Below are positions 22,504 through 63,654 of a DNA stretch of 64,000 bases, one piece after another. Every line of letters begins with the position of its first letter. Within the stretch, counting starts at the first letter, position 1. The translations under genes and the position numbers were made by a program. Location: positions 37,448,001-37,512,000 of the forward strand of contig OX597815.1 of assembly GCA_951406725.2 (NCBI GenBank), given 5' to 3'. The notes under the pieces were generated by a model. The model searched no databases. It was not told the DNA's origin and was given only the letters and a program-made list of their open reading frames with translations. Origin of the DNA: Octopus vulgaris (taxonomy: Eukaryota).

Positions 22504-23137
22504 CACTTTCCTTTTACTGAGCAATTCAAAATTTACAAAAGGCCTTATATTTTTATCTACGTTTAGAATATACTTAACTCATTCCGAAGACGATAAATTT
22601 GTATTTATATGTGGCGTGTTTTGGTTCAGTTGAAAAATATCAACCGCGGCTTTATGTGAACTTATAATCGATTTGTGACTTTGTAAATATTTTAGTTATC
22701 AATATATATCTGTTTTGATCTACATATAACTAATTTATTTTCCAAACAAAAGCGTAATTACCTCCTCTGTTTATAATTTCAATCACAGATTACCTCCACT
22801 AAAATGTATTTACTTTCCGATTCATTTACAAAATATCGGTTCTCCTACGAAGATGCAATGCAAGCTTATTATAATACTCAGTCATGATTAGCATAAGCGA
22901 AACGGATCGACTATGCAAATATTTCATTTCCAACATAAAATTCCTGTGGATTTTTCTTCTTTTTATACTTTTATTGCAAATCACCGAGTGGAGTTTTATC
23001 TCGAACCTTAGAAATATATATATATAAATAAATAAATATATATATATATATATATAAAAGTTGAGTTGTGGGGTATCGCACGAGTGGGATTATATAAGAA
23101 AAAAGGTTTGAAAATGCAATTTAAACGATGTTTATTT

Positions 23138-23178
23138 ACTTAACCGGTTTCACTCTTTGGTAAAAGATTGTCAAAAGT
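23138..23178 (-). ncRNA. Minimal hammerhead-like motif (U3-A8), left arm
   Basis: Reverse complement of the 25640-25680 motif. Confidence 0.65.
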
Positions 23179-23954
23179 TACATTTAAGGAAACATTGAAT
23201 AATATGGGTTCAAAAAAAGGTTTTTACATAATTGTCACATTGAATATTATGCATTCAAAAAAGTTTTTTACATAATTGTCACATTGAATATTATGCATTC
23301 AAAAAAGTTTTTTACATAATTGTCACATTGGATATTATGAATTCAAAAATGTTTTTTTATACATAATTGTCACATTATTTGGGAAAATTTGGCAGAAAAG
23401 GATAAAACAAATATATTATTGGGAATTGGTTGCGTTAATTATTGGTTGTCGCAAATTGTCACATTACATGTATATATATACAATCTTTGGTATATATATA
23501 CAGCGTTTTGACAGCAAAAATTAAAATGGAATTTTTGTACATCTCAGAATATTTTAAGTATGTTTTTACTGACCTGTCAGTATTAGCAGAAAGGCTGAAC
23601 TGAGAGAACAGAAGAAGTAGCCAATGTGGTGTATACTTCCCCTTTATGCATGAATGATTTTGGGGTTATCAGGAGGTTAGTATGCGGGTGTGAATAGATG
23701 TGTCCGTGCCTGCTGGTCAGACAGCGTCTGTTTGTCACACACATATATATACACACAAACACACACACACACAACAACACACACACACACACACATAGTA
23801 TACAAACACACACCACATACAAACAACACACACACACACAGAACACACACATCCACACACAACGCACCCACATATATCACATATACACACAGCACACAAA
23901 TATAACATGTATCTATATATAACATACACAGATATATAACACACATACACACAC

Positions 23955-24001
<47 letters not shown>

Positions 24002-25639
24002 CACACGCACACATACATACATAATATAAATATCACACAAATACACCTAGCATATATATACACACATACAATACACACATACAGCATGTAAGTAATATAC
24101 ATACACAATATATGCATGCAATATACATACGCAATACATACATATAATATATATATATATAGACAATGCATATACATATATACACATATACATATAAATA
24201 GTGTTTACATACACATACATAGATGTACCACATATACACACAACACACATACATACAATGCATACACATACACGTACGCATACATATAATATATATATAC
24301 ACACACACACACATAACATACATACACACACAATGCATACATATATATACACGCAATGCATATACATGTATTCATGCACATATAGCACACCTACAATATA
24401 CATATATACAGTGCACACATACACACAAATATATACACTTAATTGTACACGTACATATACAATACACATACATACAATATACATATTGAATGTATATATA
24501 TATTATATGTATGCGTACGTGTATGTGTATGCATTGTATGTATGTGTGTTGTGTGTATATGTGGTACATCTATGTATGTGTATGTAAACACTATTTATAT
24601 GTATATGTGTATATATGTATATGCATTGTCTATATATATATATATTATATGTATGTATTGCGTATGTATATTGCATGCATATATTGTGTATGTATATTAC
24701 TTACATGCTGTATGTGTGTATTGTATGTGTGTATATATATGCTAGGTGTATTTGTGTGATATTTATATTATGTATGTATGTGTGCGTGTGTTGTGTGTGT
24801 GTGTGTGTGTGTGTGTTGTGTGTGTATGTGTGTTATATATCTGTGTATGTTATATATAGATACATGTTATATTTGTGTGCTGTGTGTATATGTGATATAT
24901 GTGGGTGCGTTGTGTGTGGGTGTGTGTGTTCTGTGTGTGTGTGTGTTGTTTGTATGTGGTGTGTGTTTGTATACTATGTGTGTGTGTGTGTGTGTTGTTG
25001 TTGTGTGTGTGTGTTTGTGTGTATATATATGTGTGTGACAAACAGACGCTGTCTGACCAGCAGGCACGGACACATCTATTCACACCCGCATACTAACCTC
25101 CTGATAACCCCAAAATCATTCATGCATAAAGGGGAAGTATACACCACATTGGCTACTTCTTCTGTTCTCTCAGTTCAGCCTTTCTGCTAATACTGACAGG
25201 TCAGTAAAAACATACTTAAAATATTCTGAGATGTACAAAAAATCCATTTTAATTTTTGCTGTCAAAACGCTGTATATATATACCAAAGATTGTATATATA
25301 TATACATGTAATGTGACAATTTGCGACAACCAATAATTAACGCAACCAATTCCCAATAATATATTTGTTTTATCCTTTTCTGCCAAATTTTCCCAAATAA
25401 TGTGACAATTATGTATAAAAAAACATTTTTGAATTCATAATATCCAATGTGACAATTATGTAAAAACTTTTTTGAATGCATAATATTCAATGTGACAATT
25501 ATGTAAAAAACTTTTTTTGAACCCATAATATCCAATGTGACAATTATGTAACAAACTTTTTTGAATGCATAATATTCAATGTGACAATTATGTAAAAAAC
25601 TTTTTTGAACCCATATTATTCAATGTTTCCTTAAATGTA

Positions 25640-25680
25640 ACTTTTGACAATCTTTTACCAAAGAGTGAAACCGGTTAAGT
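25640..25680 (+). ncRNA. Minimal hammerhead-like motif (U3-A8), right arm
   Basis: ACTT-TTGACAA-T-CTTTT acca AAGAG-T-GAAA-CCGG-TT-AAGT, then AATAAA. Helix III is palindromic. Confidence 0.65.
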
Positions 25681-25791
25681 AAATAAACATCGTTTAAATT
25701 GCATTTTCAAACCTTTTTTCTTATATATATATTTATATATATATATATATATATATATAAATATGGATATTATATATATATATATAAATAT

Positions 25792-27630
25792 GTTATTATG
25801 GATACCGAATACTATAAGGATTTGGTTGAAGACCAACTGAAGGATACAACCTTCTATTGTGAAATACCCGCAAATATAGACCACCACATCATGAAAAAGA
25901 TCAACAACCTGATTTCAACACACCACAACTCACTTACGGATAATGAAAAAGACTACATCACCAATTTTGAACCAAAACCCAGCAACTTCTACGGCTTACC
26001 AAAAATACACAAATCAAAAAACATTCAACAGGCAGTAAAAGAACAAGAAAGTGAGTACATAAAATTATTACATCCAAAAGACCTAAAACTTAGACCTATT
26101 ATAGCTGGTCCAGCATGCCCTACACACCGTCTAAGCAATTTTATTGACATTGTTTTGAAACCACTATGTACTTACATACCAAGTTTCATCAGGGATGACA
26201 TCGACTTCCTGTCCCATCTTCCCAAAACAACAGAAACAAATTCAGTTTTGCTAAGTTTTGATGTGGTAAGCCTCTACACCAATATTCCACACGATTTAGG
26301 AATAAAGGCGATTAAATACTGGTTAGAAAAACATAGAGAAGTGATTCCCAGCAGATTCACAGTGCCATTTATATTAGACACAGTCAAACTTATTCTAGAA
26401 AATAACACATTCTTCTTCAATGGAAAGAATTACATCCAAATTAGAGGCACGGCGATGGGAACGAGGTTTGCTCCCGTTTACGCCAACTCTGTAATGGGAT
26501 ACTTAGAAGAACAACTCTACCAAGAGGTGGAGGTAAACTATGGCACTGGATTTAGAAAGTATATTGAAAAGGCATGGAAGAGATACCTAGACGACTGTTT
26601 CATAATCTGGACAGAATCTCTAAATACTCTGGAAGAGTTCAATATCCTCCTGAACAACCTACACCCATCTCTCAAATTTACAAAGGAGATGAGTAGTACC
26701 AAATTACCATTCCTGGATATAATGGTAATTAAAAAAGACACCACCATCACCACAGATATATACTATAAACACACAGACACACATCAATACCTAAATTTTA
26801 AGTCGTGCCATCCACCACATACAAAACGTAACATCCCATACTGCCTAGCCAGAAGAATTTGTACTATTGTAGAAGATGCAAATATCAGGAACAAACGCCT
26901 AATAGAACTAAGAGAATTTTTGCACAAACAAAAATACCCATCTCTACTTATAGAAAATGGCATACAGCGGGCTATAAAAATACCTATACAACAACTTAGG
27001 ACAACCCAAGGAAGAGGAAAACAAGAACAAGTCATACCATTCATAGTGACACACAACCCATGTCACCAGAATATCTTCAACATTGCCAAAGCAAACCTAC
27101 CAATCATTGCCCAAAGTAATGAATTAAAAGACATAATCAAGGATCGAGCTATGGTGCTTAGTAAAAGACAGCCTAAAAACTTGAAAACATTACTAACAAA
27201 GGCAAAATTTGACCTCAGCAACAAAGACCAAACATTCACGGTATCTAAATGCAATGATAGCCGATGTGGCACATGCCAATTCATACATACCGGTCAATAT
27301 ATAAACACAAAAACCGGGAAAATATTCACAAACGCGAATATGAACTGCAAAAGCAGAAATTTAATTTACTGCATCAAATGCCCAAATTGTGAAGAAATAT
27401 ATGTAGGTCAGACGGGAAACGCACTATTAGAACGCTCACGTGTACACCGGCAACAGATTAGAGACCCAGAGGTCCGTCAGATACCTTTGAGTAACCACCT
27501 AGCAACATGTGGTCGGAAAATATATATAATATTTCCATTCTACAAATTACACAGCCCAAGTGAAATCGAGAGGAAAATCAGAGAAAAGAATTTTATTGAT
27601 AAATTCGAACCCAAGCTAAATAAGCAATAA
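25792..27630 (+). CDS. Penelope-like element ORF: reverse transcriptase + Cys-rich linker + GIY-YIG endonuclease (5'-truncated, Neptune-like)
   Basis: FYGLPKIHK, LRPII, SFDVVSLYTNIP, GTAMGT, RYLDD, PFLD, YYKHTDTHQYL, CNDSRCGTC and LIYCIKCPNCEEIYVGQTG. No stop over ~610 codons. It begins at VIMD, just after where the DKG motif would lie. First ATG at 25798. Confidence 0.95.
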   Translation, partial: VIMDTEYYKDLVEDQLKDTTFYCEIPANIDHHIMKKINNLISTHHNSLTDNEKDYITNFEPKPSNFYGLPKIHKSKNIQQAVKEQESEYIKLLHPKDLKLRPIIAGPACPTHRLSNFIDIVLKPLCTYIPSFIRDDIDFLSHLPKTTETNSVLLSFDVVSLYTNIPHDLGIKAIKYWLEKHREVIPSRFTVPFILDTVKLILENNTFFFNGKNYIQIRGTAMGTRFAPVYANSVMGYLEEQLYQEVEVNYGTGFRKYIEKAWKRYLDDCFIIWTESLNTLEEFNILLNNLHPSLKFTKEMSSTKLPFLDIMVIKKDTTITTDIYYKHTDTHQYLNFKSCHPPHTKRNIPYCLARRICTIVEDANIRNKRLIELREFLHKQKYPSLLIENGIQRAIKIPIQQLRTTQGRGKQEQVIPFIVTHNPCHQNIFNIAKANLPIIAQSNELKDIIKDRAMVLSKRQPKNLKTLLTKAKFDLSNKDQTFTVSKCNDSRCGTCQFIHTGQYINTKTGKIFTNANMNCKSRNLIYCIKCPNCEEIYVGQTGNALLERSRVHRQQIRDPEVRQIPLSNHLATCGRKIYIIFPFYKLHSPSEIERKIREKNFIDKFEPKLNKQ

Positions 27631-28315
27631 TAATAATACTTAGAGGTATTACTTCCACTGCTACGACCATGACCACTAACAACAACAACAATACTAAAGG
27701 TGATCAAGACGAAGATAGCAGGAAAATTATCTTATTTAGGGTTAAAAGTTCTATTGCCACCACCATCACCACTAGCAACAATAATTAAGGTGCTGACAAT
27801 GATGATGATGACAATTGAAATATAAAAATATAAAAATCTCTGACAAAGGATATTTACAACATTTCTAAAAATAACCCAACAATTGCTGCTTCGGCCAGGG
27901 TCAAGATACAGGACTCTTGACCTGTCCAACAAAGCTTGATGCCTAAACCAATCAGCTCAACCAACCAATCAGCTTAAGTAATTGAGTGATACTACACACT
28001 GATTGGTCAGAATACAGTTTGCAAAACCTAGCACTCTGGAGCCTACCCAGCTGTATTTATAGCACAGAATCACTCATCTTGCTACAGTCAAAAATTGTGA
28101 AGCATGACTGTCAACACTACTACATGAACCCGAAGATTGCAGAATTCAATGCATGAAAGTACTAGTTCAATCAGAATGAATATTTAACATTCTACTATTT
28201 CATTTTATTTTATTCAATTATAATATATTATCTTATAATATATCATTATAAGATTGTAAATAAAACGTGAAAATCAGACAAGGTTGGAATTCTTTTTATT
28301 AATATATTCTTCTAT
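27631..28315 (+). mobile_element. 3' UTR/pLTR of the Penelope-like element
   Basis: Follows the ORF stop, contains a hammerhead-like motif and ends in a (CA)n(TA)n tract. Confidence 0.75.
28125..28169 (+). ncRNA. Minimal hammerhead-like motif (C4 variant)
   Basis: TGAAC-CCGAAGA-T-TGCA gaattcaa TGCA-T-GAAA-GTAC-TA-GTTCA. Confidence 0.7.
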
Positions 28316-28396
<81 letters not shown>

Positions 28397-28397
28397 A

Positions 28398-28429
<32 letters not shown>

Positions 28430-28750
28430 GTGAGTGTGTGTATGTGTGTGTGTATGTGTGTGTAAATATAATATGTGACAATTATTCGGTTGCCATGAGT
28501 TTCGGATATCGGAGTGGAAATCCACGCCACCATCTCTTCATAATATCGAGGTCTCTTTCATTCTTTTGTTGTCTTACCATTTCTATCAACATATATATAT
28601 ATATATAAAATCGTGTGTTGAAACATATATTGTTGTATTTAGGAATGGTCATTTTGCCAGTTTAGCCAATAAAAACACACGCACTATATATTTGGTGTTA
28701 CTTTGCTTCAGCGTAATTAATTTCTAACATTAATCTTAATCTTATTTCGG

Positions 28751-28790
28751 CCAGAGTTCTTTCGTCACATTCCTGTGACCTCATCAGTGG
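28751..28790 (-). ncRNA. Hammerhead ribozyme motif
   Basis: Minus strand CCA-CTGATGA-G-GTCAC aggaat GTGAC-GAAA-GAAC-TC-TGG. Confidence 0.8.
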
Positions 28791-28982
28791 TTCTTTGCTT
28801 TCTTCTTTTTCATTTGTGTGTCTCTCCTTACTAACGATCAGCCATTTTGTATTACGTATTCCTATTGTATGTGTCTTCATTTACACATGCGTATACTTCT
28901 ATGTGTTTCTATGTTTAGTTAGTGTGTGTGTATGTATGTGTGTGAGGAGAGACACACAAATAAGAAAGAAGAAAGCAAAGGA

Positions 28983-29022
28983 CCACTGATGAGGTCACAG
29001 GAGTGTGACGAAAGATCTATGG
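28983..29022 (+). ncRNA. Hammerhead ribozyme motif
   Basis: CCA-CTGATGA-G-GTCAC aggagt GTGAC-GAAA-GATC-TA-TGG. Confidence 0.8.
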
Positions 29023-29597
29023 CCGAAATAAGATTAAGATTAACGTAAAAAGTGAATAACGCTGAAGCAAAGTAACACCAAATATATAGTGCGTGTGTTT
29101 TCATTGGCTAAACTGGCAAAATGACCATTCCTAAATACAACAATATATATATAAATATATAAAGAGAAATACGCCCCAAAATTATCGCAGTGCGACTGAA
29201 TCTTGCACTGATAGATTGCGAAGCAAACTTCTTAAATCATTTGGAGGGTTGCTTTCACATACTGTATCGCCGTTCACCCATCCATAAACTTTCGCACACA
29301 CGCGTTCTTTTCATTAACAAAATCCTCCATTTGTAATATTGTAATTAGACATATCGAGTGGGAACCCTTTGAACATTACACATTCTATAACGCACTGTAT
29401 TACACAGTTACATAATTTATTGAACGATCTACAACTTAAACTTTTACATTATCTATATATTCTGGAATTTCACTGCAGCAAAATGTGAAGAATATAGCAA
29501 AAATTAAACCTTCAACGCTTGGTTTTCTTGTAACAGCCACAGTATTTAATCAGATTTGAAAGATGCCGACCTTCCATAAGACTGAGTTCATGTCGAC

Positions 29598-29751
29598 AAG
29601 TTGGTAGTAAAGAATATCGCTTTGCAGCTATAAGGTTACGGATTCAGTCCTATTCTGTAGCACGTAAGGTAGGTGTCTTCTGCTATGGCCTCGGATCCAC
29701 CCAATGCTTTGTGACTGAATTTCATAGACAGAAACTGTGTGGAAACTTGTC

Positions 29752-57765: not shown

Positions 57766-59995
57766 TGTAATTGTTCAGTTTTATTTCGAAATTTCTTACC
57801 AATGGAGAAAGGGCCGGTTTCTAACCTCGATGCTCCTTCATTGGAATTTCAACAATATCAACAGGATATATTTGTATGTATATGTGCAAATTTGTATGTT
57901 TTGTTTTATTTATGTATTCTCATGCATGTAGTTGAAGGTCTAGACATGCATATATGTATTTAAATGATAAACTTCTGGAAAGTTTTACAGATCTTTACAG
58001 TTCCAGTGATCTTTAGTCTTTGAATCAGCTTTCTCCCTTCTAGTTTTGAGAAGCCTGATTTCTCAAGATTGGTATTTAGGCAGTGTGTCCCACTGTCCTA
58101 ATAATTACAGGTATGAACCTGAACTTGTAATTGGGATAGACCTAACCGTAGATTACTTAATTGTTCAGCGTAGGTATTTTTTCTTTCTAGCCAATTTTTA
58201 GCTTTATGTTAACACCCACTGAGCAGCTGATTCTCTTCTCTATCCCAAATCACTATGATAGGTATATTAGGTTTAAATTTTATTGAGGTTTTCACGAGAA
58301 CATTCCACCAGTAATCCTTTTTATTATGAGTGGCTATGGCTTCTGTCATACTGCGGCTTCTTATTTCTTTGGCCATGGGGTTATCCTTCCGACAGATCAC
58401 ATTATACAGTGTCCTAGCTACAACATCATGTTTCATCAGTAGATGATAATGTAATGACATTTTCAGAGAACTGCTTATGACGTAGGTGATATCTTCGGTG
58501 TTAACTCCACAAAGTCTGCATCAGTTATCACATTTTGCTGTTTTTTCAGCGTCTCTGTCTCTTTGCTGCATCATGTATTTGGCTGATATTTCCTGTTCCT
58601 GGATTGCAAACACCTAGTGGGTGGGGGGTAGTTGGTCCATGAAAGGCTGCTTTGATGATCAGTATTACTATCATCTCGGAGCTTTCTACTTGCATATCCA
58701 TGCATGGTCTTCTGCTCATATACGCTCATCCTTTCATCTGATATGTTGCGATAGAGTTGTGCAACTTCTGTGGGCATGTATTTAAAATTATCGGACAAGG
58801 AATGCTGGTCAAGGACATGCTTTCCAAATCTTATGATGCTATCAGCTTCATGTATGCAAACTTGATCAAGAGTTGCATTTTGACACTTGGTGGTTAAAAG
58901 ATGTTGCCAAAGGGATATGATACGACATTCAAAGGCAGTCTGGACTGATGTTAAGCTAATGTCGCCTTGTTTTCGTTGTAGTTAGAGGCAGTCGACATCA
59001 CTGTTCAGGTGGAGATTATGTGTGCTGGTTAGTATCTTCTGGGTTTTTGCATCAATAGCTCGGATCTCATCAAGCAGCCCAAATATTGGTATGAGTACTT
59101 GCTGGCACTGCAAACACACAGTGAGTCACGGTTTTATTGAATGCAGGTAGTTCCGAGGTCCATAGTTTTTAATTTGGCTGTAATATTCTTAGAGACACGT
59201 TTTTTGTTTACTACAGATGCCTTTGTAAGGTATGTTTTCATCCACTCCTACACACCTGTAACATCCCTCGTCATACAGAGGAACAAGTTAAGCCATTGAT
59301 GGAACTGTTGCTTGTCTTTTCACAACCATATAGCAACATTTATCCTGACCTAAATCCAACGCTATATCCTTTGAAGATGTTGTAACCAAGCCAGGGCTCT
59401 TTTTCATCTCATGCATATTCTTGGCATATAGTTTCAAGTCATCCACAAAGAATAAGTGTGTAATTTTGGTATTTCTGTTTCCTTGTGAACATGTGAGACA
59501 TCCTTCAGACTTTCTTAACAGGAATGACAAGGGGTTTACAGAAAGTATAACCATCACAGAGAGTCTGTCCTCTTGGAATATGTCTTTGCGATACTGTATT
59601 ATATCAGTGAGAATACAATCATTCCTTGTGTTTAATTTCAAGATGGTGGCCCACGATGAAGTCAGGTCTGCTATGGCTTTGAATATGCTCACTGGCCATT
59701 TAGCATATCGAAGGGCTTCTAGTATCCATGAATGGGGAACAGAATCAAAGGCTTTCTTGTAGTCTAGCCACATTGAAACTAGGTTCCTTCTATTCCTCTG
59801 CACGTCTGACATTACAGTTTTGTTTATTAAAAATTGCTCAGCAAATCTCCAGCCTCGCTTCTTCCCAACTGATTGTTCTGCTGTGATGATGTTATTATAT
59901 CACAATAGTTTTGGAGGAAGAGGTTCAAACATGCTGTACATAATTTATACATTAAGTTCGAGCATGTAATTGGCCAGTAGGTGTTTGCGATGGGA
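57766..59995 (-). mobile_element. 5'-truncated R4/Dong-like non-LTR element (RT, zinc knuckle, RLE), disrupted, flanked by (TATG)n
   Basis: YWPITCSNLMYKL, MWLDYKKAFDSVPHSWI, IFQED.LS, HLFFVDDLKLY, CRLCG, KHDVVARTLY and WWNV..KT. Confidence 0.9.
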
Positions 59996-60689: not shown

Positions 60690-61462
60690 CTGTAATATCA
60701 TGTGTAAATAAATATAAATGATAATATAGGATTCTATTAGTAATATATAACAACTCTTCTCCTTTATTTAAAGCTACTGATATAAAAAAAAAATATCTAA
60801 AGTAACAAAAAAATGTTCTTTATTTACTGAGTTTATCGGAGAGAAAATTCCGTAATAAATAGGAAAAGAAAATTAGAGCTACAATAACTTCAATCTATAT
60901 TACCCCATAGATATAGAGTTAGGCTATAATAGTGGATATTAAAATATTACTATTTGTTCAGATGTAACCAAATTTGAAGTAACTCAAATAAGGATTATAC
61001 GCAGTAACTAACAAGTAAATGTCCCTATATACGTATATTACGGAAGGGAGAATAAAATAAAGTAAGATAAGCAAAAACATGGAGTACCGATCCACAATAT
61101 CAATAATCAATATTATTTTTTAGATAAAGGACTATAAATAGTATATATATGTATATATCCAAATTTTATTAAATCTTTCAGAAGTAACAAAATTATATTG
61201 TTGCAATAAGAATACATGCTATAAACTATACAATACTATAATAATTATTATTAGACTTTACTGAACAGTTATTGTTAGGTTTCTCTTCATATTTATTACG
61301 GAATTCCCCCTCCGATAAACTAAGTAAATAAAGGACATATTTTTTGTTACTTTAGATAATTTTTTTTTATATCAATACCTTTAAATAAAGAAGAAGAGTT
61401 GTTATATATTACCAAAAGAATACTATATTATCATTTATATTTATTTACATGTTTTATTACAG
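60690..61462. repeat. AT-rich inverted repeat (arms ~60690-60892 and ~61262-61462)
   Basis: For example, tttatcggagagaaaattccgtaataaat pairs with atttattacggaattccccctccgataaa. Confidence 0.88.
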
Positions 61463-62088: not shown

Positions 62089-62123
62089 GTTTCTGACGAA
62101 GAGCTCCGCTCGAAACATTAAAT
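62089..62123 (+). ncRNA. Minimal hammerhead-like motif in a Penelope-type 3' end running into (TA)n
   Basis: GTTT-CTGACGA-A-GAGC tcc GCTC-GAAA-CA-TT-AAAT, about 90 bp before (TA)n at 62212-62424. Confidence 0.7.
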
Positions 62124-62208
62124 CCTCCTTCTTTCTTTCCTTTCCTGAGCGTCCAATAACACTATACGTGTTCCACGTCCTCGCGTTGTTGTGTTTTCAT
62201 GTGTGGAT

Positions 62209-63140: not shown

Positions 63141-63146
<6 letters not shown>

Positions 63147-63654
63147 TCGTAGCCACTTCAACATGACTGTTCAAACAGACTTTACTGCAACTTTTTAACC
63201 CCAAGAGCACTCCTCCTCTAGTTGGTTAACGATGAACACCTGCGTCCGAGATATTGCGAGCAGGGGAGAGACCCCCTACTACCTTCTAGCGACGGGACCA
63301 GCAGACAAGCCTGGTTTCGGGTTATTTCTGCCTCTCTACAGTCACCTCGCCTGCTAGAGATGCTCGCAATATATATAATTTGAAGCAACATACAGTCAAT
63401 GTTTGTGCAACAAATAAAAATGGCAGTTCTAAAGTCTCTCTAAGAGATCAATACAGTAGTTGTACTAATCAGAAGGTGGTTGGAGTTCGCTCCCCTGCTC
63501 GTAATATCTCGTTAACCAGCTAGAGGTGTCCTCCTGAGCTTAAAAACTCGCAGTAATGTCCGTTCGAACTGACAGCCATGTTGAAGTGGTTACGAACATT
63601 ACTTGTTTGTACAACTACTGCATTGATCTCTTAGATTTTAGAACTAGCATTTTT
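63141..63654. repeat. Interleaved inverted repeats A-B-A'-B'
   Basis: A 63141-63287 pairs with A' 63471-63601. B 63416-63465 pairs with B' 63609-63654. Confidence 0.85.

Follow-up and report, generated by a model that had tools for sequence, protein, structure and literature searches.

A hairpin locus of Octopus vulgaris with a hammerhead motif in each arm, interpreted as a truncated inverted insertion of the PLE type

A 525-bp segment (28626-29150) of the Octopus vulgaris DNA analysed here, a stretch of 64,000 nucleotides referred to below as the window, forms a hairpin with a hammerhead ribozyme motif on each strand. The question it raises is whether such a structure is a mobile unit in its own right, built around two ribozymes, or a by-product of the way in which another element inserts. 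The preliminary description left room for both, comparing the hairpin to a non-autonomous retrozyme-like unit and to a solo inverted Penelope terminal repeat. We consider it probable, at roughly 0.84, that the locus goes back to one old insertion by an endonuclease-bearing PLE machinery into a TA microsatellite, in which two 5'-truncated pieces were joined head to head. The parts of the locus under this interpretation are given below with the evidence for each.

28626..28941, minus strand: apparent longer 5'-truncated copy of the family 3' end (left arm plus 'spacer'), about 316 bp; bridging contigs from other loci
28626..28831, minus strand: left arm; repeat search, blastn, arm comparison
28749..28793, minus strand: left minimal type I hammerhead motif, predicted cut after 28754 (triplet CUC), outer helix I pair broken at 28792; pattern scan, arm comparison
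28832..28941, minus strand: 'spacer', the low-complexity, CA-rich upstream part of the longer copy and not host DNA; contig depth, bridging contigs
28942..29148, plus strand: right arm, an inverted copy of 204-207 bp, more strongly 5'-truncated, with the same 3' end; blastn, arm comparison, flank contigs
28980..29024, plus strand: right minimal type I hammerhead motif, predicted cut after 29019 (triplet CUA); pattern scan, fold
28591..28630, no strand: left target region, with a TA run (28591-28607), 17 unrelated bases and a short ATATAT at the arm end; sequence (28580-28619 skipped in the contig comparison)
29143..29161, no strand: right TA run, target site; sequence, with the loose ends of other copies TA-rich behind 29153-29161

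The outline of an ORF-less hairpin with arms of about 205 bp, a 110-bp spacer and TA-rich flanks, as previously described, was borne out. A blastn comparison within the window found the inverted pair 28625-28831 / 28942-29148 (207 bp, 93.2% alike) and no third copy of the arm, the repeat search gave 28618-28831 / 28942-29155 (92%, with 110 nt between), and the longest stop-free stretch in six frames of the 525 bp was 90 codons. TA is found at both outer ends, on the left at 28625-28630 with a longer run at 28591-28607, and on the right at 29143-29161. Folded as a whole, the 525 nt form a single long hairpin (-344 kcal/mol, z -38), a trivial consequence of the inverted repeat. Both motifs read outward and the arms are therefore head to head, each finishing in a common 3' sequence followed by TA. 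The 17 extra bases at 28608-28624 are present on the left side only and could be a one-sided tail or target DNA, and no target-site duplication can be delimited because both ends lie inside TA. Compared in register, the arms show 14 differences over 207 positions; the mismatch at 28944 may be derived from the junction, in which case the arms are about 204 bp long, and a single one of the 14 is located within the outermost 90 nt (P 0.004 post hoc; scan P 0.06). The arm junction lies within low-complexity TG sequence, where inspection found no TA run, no foreign DNA and no palindrome.

The hammerhead motif reported for each arm is present exactly as written, at plus 28986-29019 and minus 28787-28754. 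The strict pattern, which was composed after the motif had been noticed, matched three times in the window, whereas 100 dinucleotide shuffles gave a mean of 0.07 matches (maximum 1), and none when a helix II of at least 6 bp was required. In the right motif an extra G separates the core CUGAUGA from helix II, which has 6 bp and a loop of 4 nt and is followed by GAA; helix I is 3+2 bp long and bulged, and helix III has 2 bp, with a palindromic hexamer. A perfect palindrome is found in the right arm alone, the family majority hexamer being only partly palindromic, and in the left motif the majority family letter at 28792 differs from that of this copy. The distance from the right cut to the TA run is 123 nt, and the hammerheads of both arms are equally placed relative to the common 3' end. 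Cervera and de la Pena (PMC4209133) characterise canonical metazoan hammerheads by loop contacts and by helices measuring 6 and 4 bp. In the PLE hammerheads, according to the same authors, helix II is long, helix I short and helix III palindromic, and a base is present between positions 9 and 10.1. The earlier label 'canonical' had to be dropped: no Rfam family reached its gathering score across the window, the 38 matches at E<=10 over 27900-29400 included no hammerhead family (most were microRNA models on microsatellites), and a closing stem for helix I sought in the flanks was not found (best flank duplex -2.2 kcal/mol). Judged by their predicted anatomy, the motifs are of the minimal Penelope type. 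The preliminary description had also noted that the arms differ at several positions with core and stem II intact in both. The differences are real, but little weight can be placed on where they fall: of the 14 mismatches, 4 are within the 45-nt motif, including the one that breaks the left-arm helix I pair, and 14 random mismatches would spare the 23 core and stem II positions with P=0.18. Selection on the hammerhead core, as a conclusion from the arm comparison, was rejected on this value.

In order to place the locus within a family, contigs of 4 of 24 listed public runs were compared with 28480-29700 at 85% likeness; the runs comprise two DNA runs of organisms A and B, a run of organism D of unknown kind and run X11 of A, guessed to be RNA. 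In run X1, in which 9,441 contigs were placed on the stretch, the summed depth, which is not a copy number, was 2e5-1.9e6 over the arms against 54.9 on the unique right flank. Over the spacer it was 1e4-2e5 (28849-28930), falling 5'-ward from 2e5 to 1.8e4 at 28890-28930. The family is dispersed at very high copy number, the probable order of magnitude being thousands of copies or more. Bridging contigs run from the arm into the spacer, at 28753-28906 (X11) and 28773-28906 (X3), each with 20 other letters, and at 28752-28877 (X11) and 28776-28877 (X12), each with 12. The spacer is thus, on the evidence of contigs from other copies, further upstream family sequence of the minus-strand copy, and the locus therefore a minus-strand copy of about 316 bp with an inverted copy of about 205 bp; for 28907-28941 this assignment is by extension, because 28910-28962 was skipped as repeat. 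The right 3' junction and its unique flank occur on one contig in X1 (29125-29700, no other letters) and in X3 (29132-29700, two other letters), so the right end is not an assembly artefact and is common to two organism labels; no single contig piece among those listed covers the whole element. Behind the 3' end (29153-29161), the loose ends of other copies in X1, X3 and X12 are TA-rich and then pass into unlike sequence (agreement 0.44-0.54), a pattern suggesting that the copies are scattered in TA runs and do not form arrays. Family sequence is present in run X11, which does not cover the unique flank and is thus uninformative on the expression of the 28626-29150 locus.

Several further observations were made in the same comparison. 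The equivalent of an A9-to-C change at 28781, core position A9 of the left motif, occurs in 7-23 contigs per run in all four runs, and the loose ends at 28817, 28736 and 29055 suggest that there are sister subfamilies in which the motif is surrounded by different sequence. To the left of the hairpin, 28465-28590 is a second high-copy repeat (X1 depth 1.1-1.4e5) whose last five letters before TA are as in the arms. A signature of A-to-I editing in the arms was rejected, the 13 positions polarised against the majority letters comprising, on the sense strand and by hand count, four A>G, one T>C, three G>A and five transversions. Exact motif scans gave no match in metagenome contigs, prokaryote genome contigs or viral contigs; short family motifs were not found in the supplements of PMC8557442 and PMC4209133 (file 2), and word searches of the literature, together with these two supplements, yielded no published name for the family.

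Directly supported by these data are the geometry, the common 3' end, the family membership of the spacer, the high copy number, the dispersal into TA and the variable junctions dealt with below. PLE ancestry is suggested by the type and layout of the motif, the family sequence being covered up to 28906 with no RT or endonuclease ORF in it, and that a single insertion event was involved we infer. In the element RNA, a minimal hammerhead would have preceded the 3' end by about 125 nt. Two pieces of reverse transcript would have started at that same 3' end and stopped early, after about 316 and 205 nt, and their joining at the truncated 5' ends would have produced a head-to-head inverted repeat in which the 'spacer' is what the longer piece has in excess of the shorter; two hammerheads would be present only because both pieces exceeded about 170 nt. 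PLE insertions are described as 5'-truncated and as often accompanied, on their 5' side, by an inverted copy that is likewise truncated (PMC8557442, PMC8969392), head-to-head being the most frequent inverted form (PMC3846280). As to the route, we give about even odds to both nicked strands having primed reverse transcription at the same RNA start, by analogy with the anole PLE protein, which in vitro cuts both strands of AT-rich DNA and extends each of them from one and the same internal RNA start (PMC11167929); by our own reasoning, two such cDNAs joined at their truncated ends would have exactly the geometry of the hairpin locus. The hammerhead of the anole PLE was dispensable for insertion in vitro (PMC11167929). 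Somewhat short of even odds is the alternative route, a self-priming fold-back during copying, which has been published for PLE head-to-head repeats (PMC3846280). The case is an ordinary one, in that the insertion pattern has already been described, while the family itself was not found named.

The arm differences could also be read as the mark of two independent insertions, the second copy having inserted in reverse orientation, next to or within the first, at a CA/TG-rich patch. Their number (14 of 207), their uneven spread (1 of 14 in the outer 90 nt) and the position of the junction in low-complexity TG sequence would agree with this. It is nevertheless very improbable, since the junction holds neither a TA run nor foreign DNA, the head-to-head geometry recurs in many joints, chance adjacency is unlikely with only two copies in the 64-kb window, and both arms make similar small departures from the majority letters. 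These departures number 8 listed positions in the left arm and 5 in the right, with no sign of two subfamilies, so that, as far as is visible, the arms do not come from different subfamilies, the finding that had been named as fatal to the original reading. A single insertion duplicated in inverted form at a later time, by a template switch in DNA replication or repair and with no retrotransposition for the second arm, may find some support in a possible 2-nt microhomology at the junction, but the inverted homology ends at the 3' end of the element with no flanking host DNA copied, and the fold-back form recurs throughout the family; we regard it as extremely improbable.

How fold-backs are joined in other copies bears on whether the 525-bp structure is itself a unit. 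Among the 15 of 47 joints listed (table 5 of the contig comparison), 10 led from an antisense arm to a sense arm, 4 were strand changes and 1, from 28689 to 29214, ran into the flank through a 21-letter side and was left out of the tally. Three further arm-to-arm joints were taken from the 12 of 34 rows listed in a second table (5c), other rows of which (28823 to 28799, 29013 to 29088 and 29163 to 28539) were not fold-backs, bringing the tally to 17. The breakpoint pairs were all different (17 of 17). Complete hammerheads numbered none in 12 of the 17 junctions, one in four and two in one, and the arms ranged from 14 to 228 nt, with 12 of 34 measuring 39-58 nt. These figures are to be read with some care: depth was 55-316 for the 14 joints from table 5, 7 of which have a side shorter than 30 letters, a class that is often spurious, and the direction of the 4 opposite-strand joints was deduced. 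Moreover, joints upstream of about 28853 are under-detected and the tally is therefore biased against forms with two hammerheads, and the junction of the locus itself (28941/28942) lies within the skipped stretch, so that the tally describes other copies. The joint 28839 to 28974 (side 64) is found at a depth of 59.1 in X1 and 20.3 in X3, near that of a single locus, and represents either another two-hammerhead fold-back or a spacer-deletion allele of the hairpin locus; in X1, the depth of the letter that the window itself has at 28854 does not exceed 17. A tendency of the 5' breakpoints to cluster at the predicted cut was considered and rejected: of 34 arm ends, 4 lie within 7 nt of it, about 2 being expected (hand count), and some arm ends fall near the cut because the right-arm differences at 29016 and 29019 clip alignments there.

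The junctions make it highly improbable that the 525-bp fold-back is mobile as such, whether as a MITE-like element or as a two-ribozyme mini-element amplified whole. Neat arms with TA ends would suit a unit of this kind, the joint 28839 to 28974 in X1 and X3 likewise keeps both motifs, and the junction that would be diagnostic lies in the skipped stretch. On the other hand, a unit copied whole would not be expected to have a different pair of breakpoints in each tabulated junction, a junction depth at least 600 times below that of the arms (for the 14 with a table-5 depth), a depth that decays over the spacer instead of staying level, or a spacer made of one-strand family sequence, and its own hairpin is predicted to abolish the ribozyme fold. 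The miniature architecture with two ribozymes that had been proposed was accordingly not supported: the spacer continues the minus-strand copy, and the junctions vary, mostly with no or one hammerhead. The solo inverted Penelope terminal repeat, the other half of the same comparison, gained support.

A more serious competitor, though still an unlikely one, is that the parent was a short ORF-less unit, either a retrozyme monomer or a SINE-like derivative of a pLTR, mobilised in trans by a PLE, with the fold-back as a by-product of insertion; it differs from the reading preferred here only in the nature of the parent, and the two are not exclusive. Depth is very high over the 3' 230 nt and one to two orders lower upstream of 28890, there is no ORF in the 525 bp, and retrozyme families are reported to have many dispersed monomers and to derive from pLTRs (10.64898/2026.07.22.740005). 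The same drop in depth would, however, be given by 5' truncation together with the divergence of this copy from the majority at 28854-55, the loose 3' ends listed consist of TA followed by unlike sequence, and the motif is without the canonical helix I and loop architecture of described retrozymes. Furthermore, no head-to-tail joint of family copies was found among the 15 of 47 joints and the 12 of 34 table-5c rows listed. For the retrozyme-like unit that the preliminary description had envisaged, this result is compounded by motifs that lie on opposite strands and that would be locked in double-stranded RNA in a read-through transcript.

The motifs of the locus were also considered as ribozymes. 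Helix II has a pairing probability of 0.0 in the whole fold-back on either strand and of 0.92-1.0 in the spacer plus one arm, and in a read-through transcript the hairpin would be expected to abolish the ribozyme fold. Lying on opposite strands, the two motifs cannot both be sense in the same transcript. We consider the copy probably inert, because a read-through RNA would form a 200-bp duplex that destroys both folds and because a motif on its own, its helix III being 2 bp long, would require another sense copy; single minimal motifs are reported in PMC4209133 to show no cleavage in vitro. Helix III duplexes between copies were computed at -5.0 kcal/mol for right with right, -0.3 for right with left and +1.4 for left with left. 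A bolder scheme can be imagined, in which an ORF-less, PLE-dependent family of many thousands of copies has active fold-backs: divergent transcription from the spacer would yield two sense RNAs, one per arm, that complete helix III in trans and cleave, the split ribozyme unit would be copied whole, and read-through hairpins would supply long dsRNA that silences the family. With 5 of 6 pairs and only -0.3 kcal/mol for right with left in trans, we think this far-fetched.

Other elements of the window have a similar layout. A relaxed scan, which was run without a shuffle control and missed the left arm, gave four further motifs with a palindromic helix III, located 45-167 nt before a microsatellite as in the hairpin arms; two follow a GIY-YIG ORF (one of them RT plus GIY-YIG), and two lie on the arms of a fold-back at 23091-25727. 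The latter is a large fold-back of another family with near-identical inner arms and a similar head-to-head pattern, which has a U3-A8 hammerhead variant on each arm (minus 23174-23142 and plus 25644-25676), in agreement with the analogy to a larger fold-back that had been drawn previously. At 25687-27630 (plus strand), with a 3' end at about 28330, lies a 5'-truncated-looking PLE between TA runs, with an open RT and GIY-YIG frame (RVT_1 E 2.6e-6, below the Pfam cut-off; GIY-YIG E 5.8e-5, above it) and a CX4CXXC linker; by the features given in PMC8557442 it appears Neptune/Nematis-like, and a hammerhead variant with the core CCGAAGA follows at 28130-28164, 3' of the ORF. A GIY-YIG fragment (1575-2177) within 1168-2410 is followed by a U3-A8 hammerhead (2289-2319) before an (ATT)n run and preceded by a 73-bp inverted copy (1168-1240 / 1431-1503) that excludes the 3' end. 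Two close inverted pairs, 60690-60889 / 61267-61462 (87%) and 63143-63287 / 63471-63599 (71%), were called free of hammerheads by the scans; 62093-62125 (plus strand) is a hammerhead-like core, detected with the loose pattern only, some 100 nt ahead of a long TA run, and 59288-59899 (minus strand) is a fragment of another reverse transcriptase (RVT_1, E 8.7e-9). Comparison of the hairpin with five other repeat ends in the window revealed no similarity (best 10 bp, E 0.49); as they share no sequence with it, the other PLE ends indicate PLE activity in this genome and do not identify the parent.

As it stands the locus is of little importance: it neatly illustrates an insertion pattern already in the literature, and might be taken for a MITE by automated annotation. 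A genome that contains many fold-backs whose junctions vary could nevertheless help to decide by which route PLEs come to lie head to head, from both nicked strands or by self-priming, and where transcribed the fold-backs are a likely source of long dsRNA.

MITEs and foldback DNA elements are short and non-coding, with long inverted arms and TA ends, all of which the locus shares. It differs from them in that the junctions vary within the family, the arms are unequal truncations of one sense sequence, and the depth gradient is weighted to the 3' end in a way typical of reverse transcription. A MITE or other fixed fold-back unit was rejected as its class, given 17 different junctions among other copies and the decay of depth over the spacer.

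With the animal non-LTR retrozymes, as described in PMC7229834 and 10.64898/2026.07.22.740005, the locus has in common the lack of an ORF, a length of about 300 bp, a type I hammerhead, low GC and a relation to PLEs. Unlike these elements, it is inverted and does not consist of head-to-tail repeats of 150-450 bp with a hammerhead per unit; its motifs are on opposite strands, and therefore no unit-length RNA can be cut out. Most of the retrozyme families described have the canonical helix I of 6 bp, helix II of 4 bp and contacts between loops 1 and 2, whereas here helix I is 3+2 bp and helix II 6 bp. A non-LTR retrozyme at this locus was rejected, the tests for tandem arrangement and for a canonical motif having both failed.

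The likeness is greater to the minimal PLE hammerheads of PMC4209133, with which the motifs share type I topology, one base between positions 9 and 10.1, the pair G10.1-C11.1, a 6-bp helix II, a short helix I without a closing stem, a small palindromic helix III and an AU-rich 3' flank; they differ from them in that the extra base is G against a consensus of H, the 5' flank is A-rich instead of U-rich, helix I is bulged and the family majority helix III hexamer is only partly palindromic. The same source reports pairs of minimal hammerheads on opposite strands, 100-700 bp apart, in Schistosoma mansoni and ascribes them to truncated PLEs, and the pair described here, about 200 bp apart, resembles these dual motifs.

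The closest counterparts are the truncated inverted PLE insertions described in PMC8557442, PMC3846280 and PMC8969392. Outward common 3' ends, unequal 5' truncation, a head-to-head junction, an AT-rich or (TA)n target, a hammerhead near the 3' end and a high dispersed copy number are found in both. They are set apart in that the copy at the hairpin locus is without an ORF and without a direct pLTR, and in that the published insertions have an optional one-sided tail of 30-40 bp, where the present locus has 17 extra bases on the left and no palindrome at the junction. Four features of PLEs were found at the locus, namely a minimal type I hammerhead near the 3' end, 5' truncation with a fixed 3' end (supported by the depth gradient, the loose ends and the arm lengths), an adjacent inverted 5'-truncated copy, and an AT-rich or microsatellite target, and on these four the locus is an inverted truncated insertion of the PLE type.
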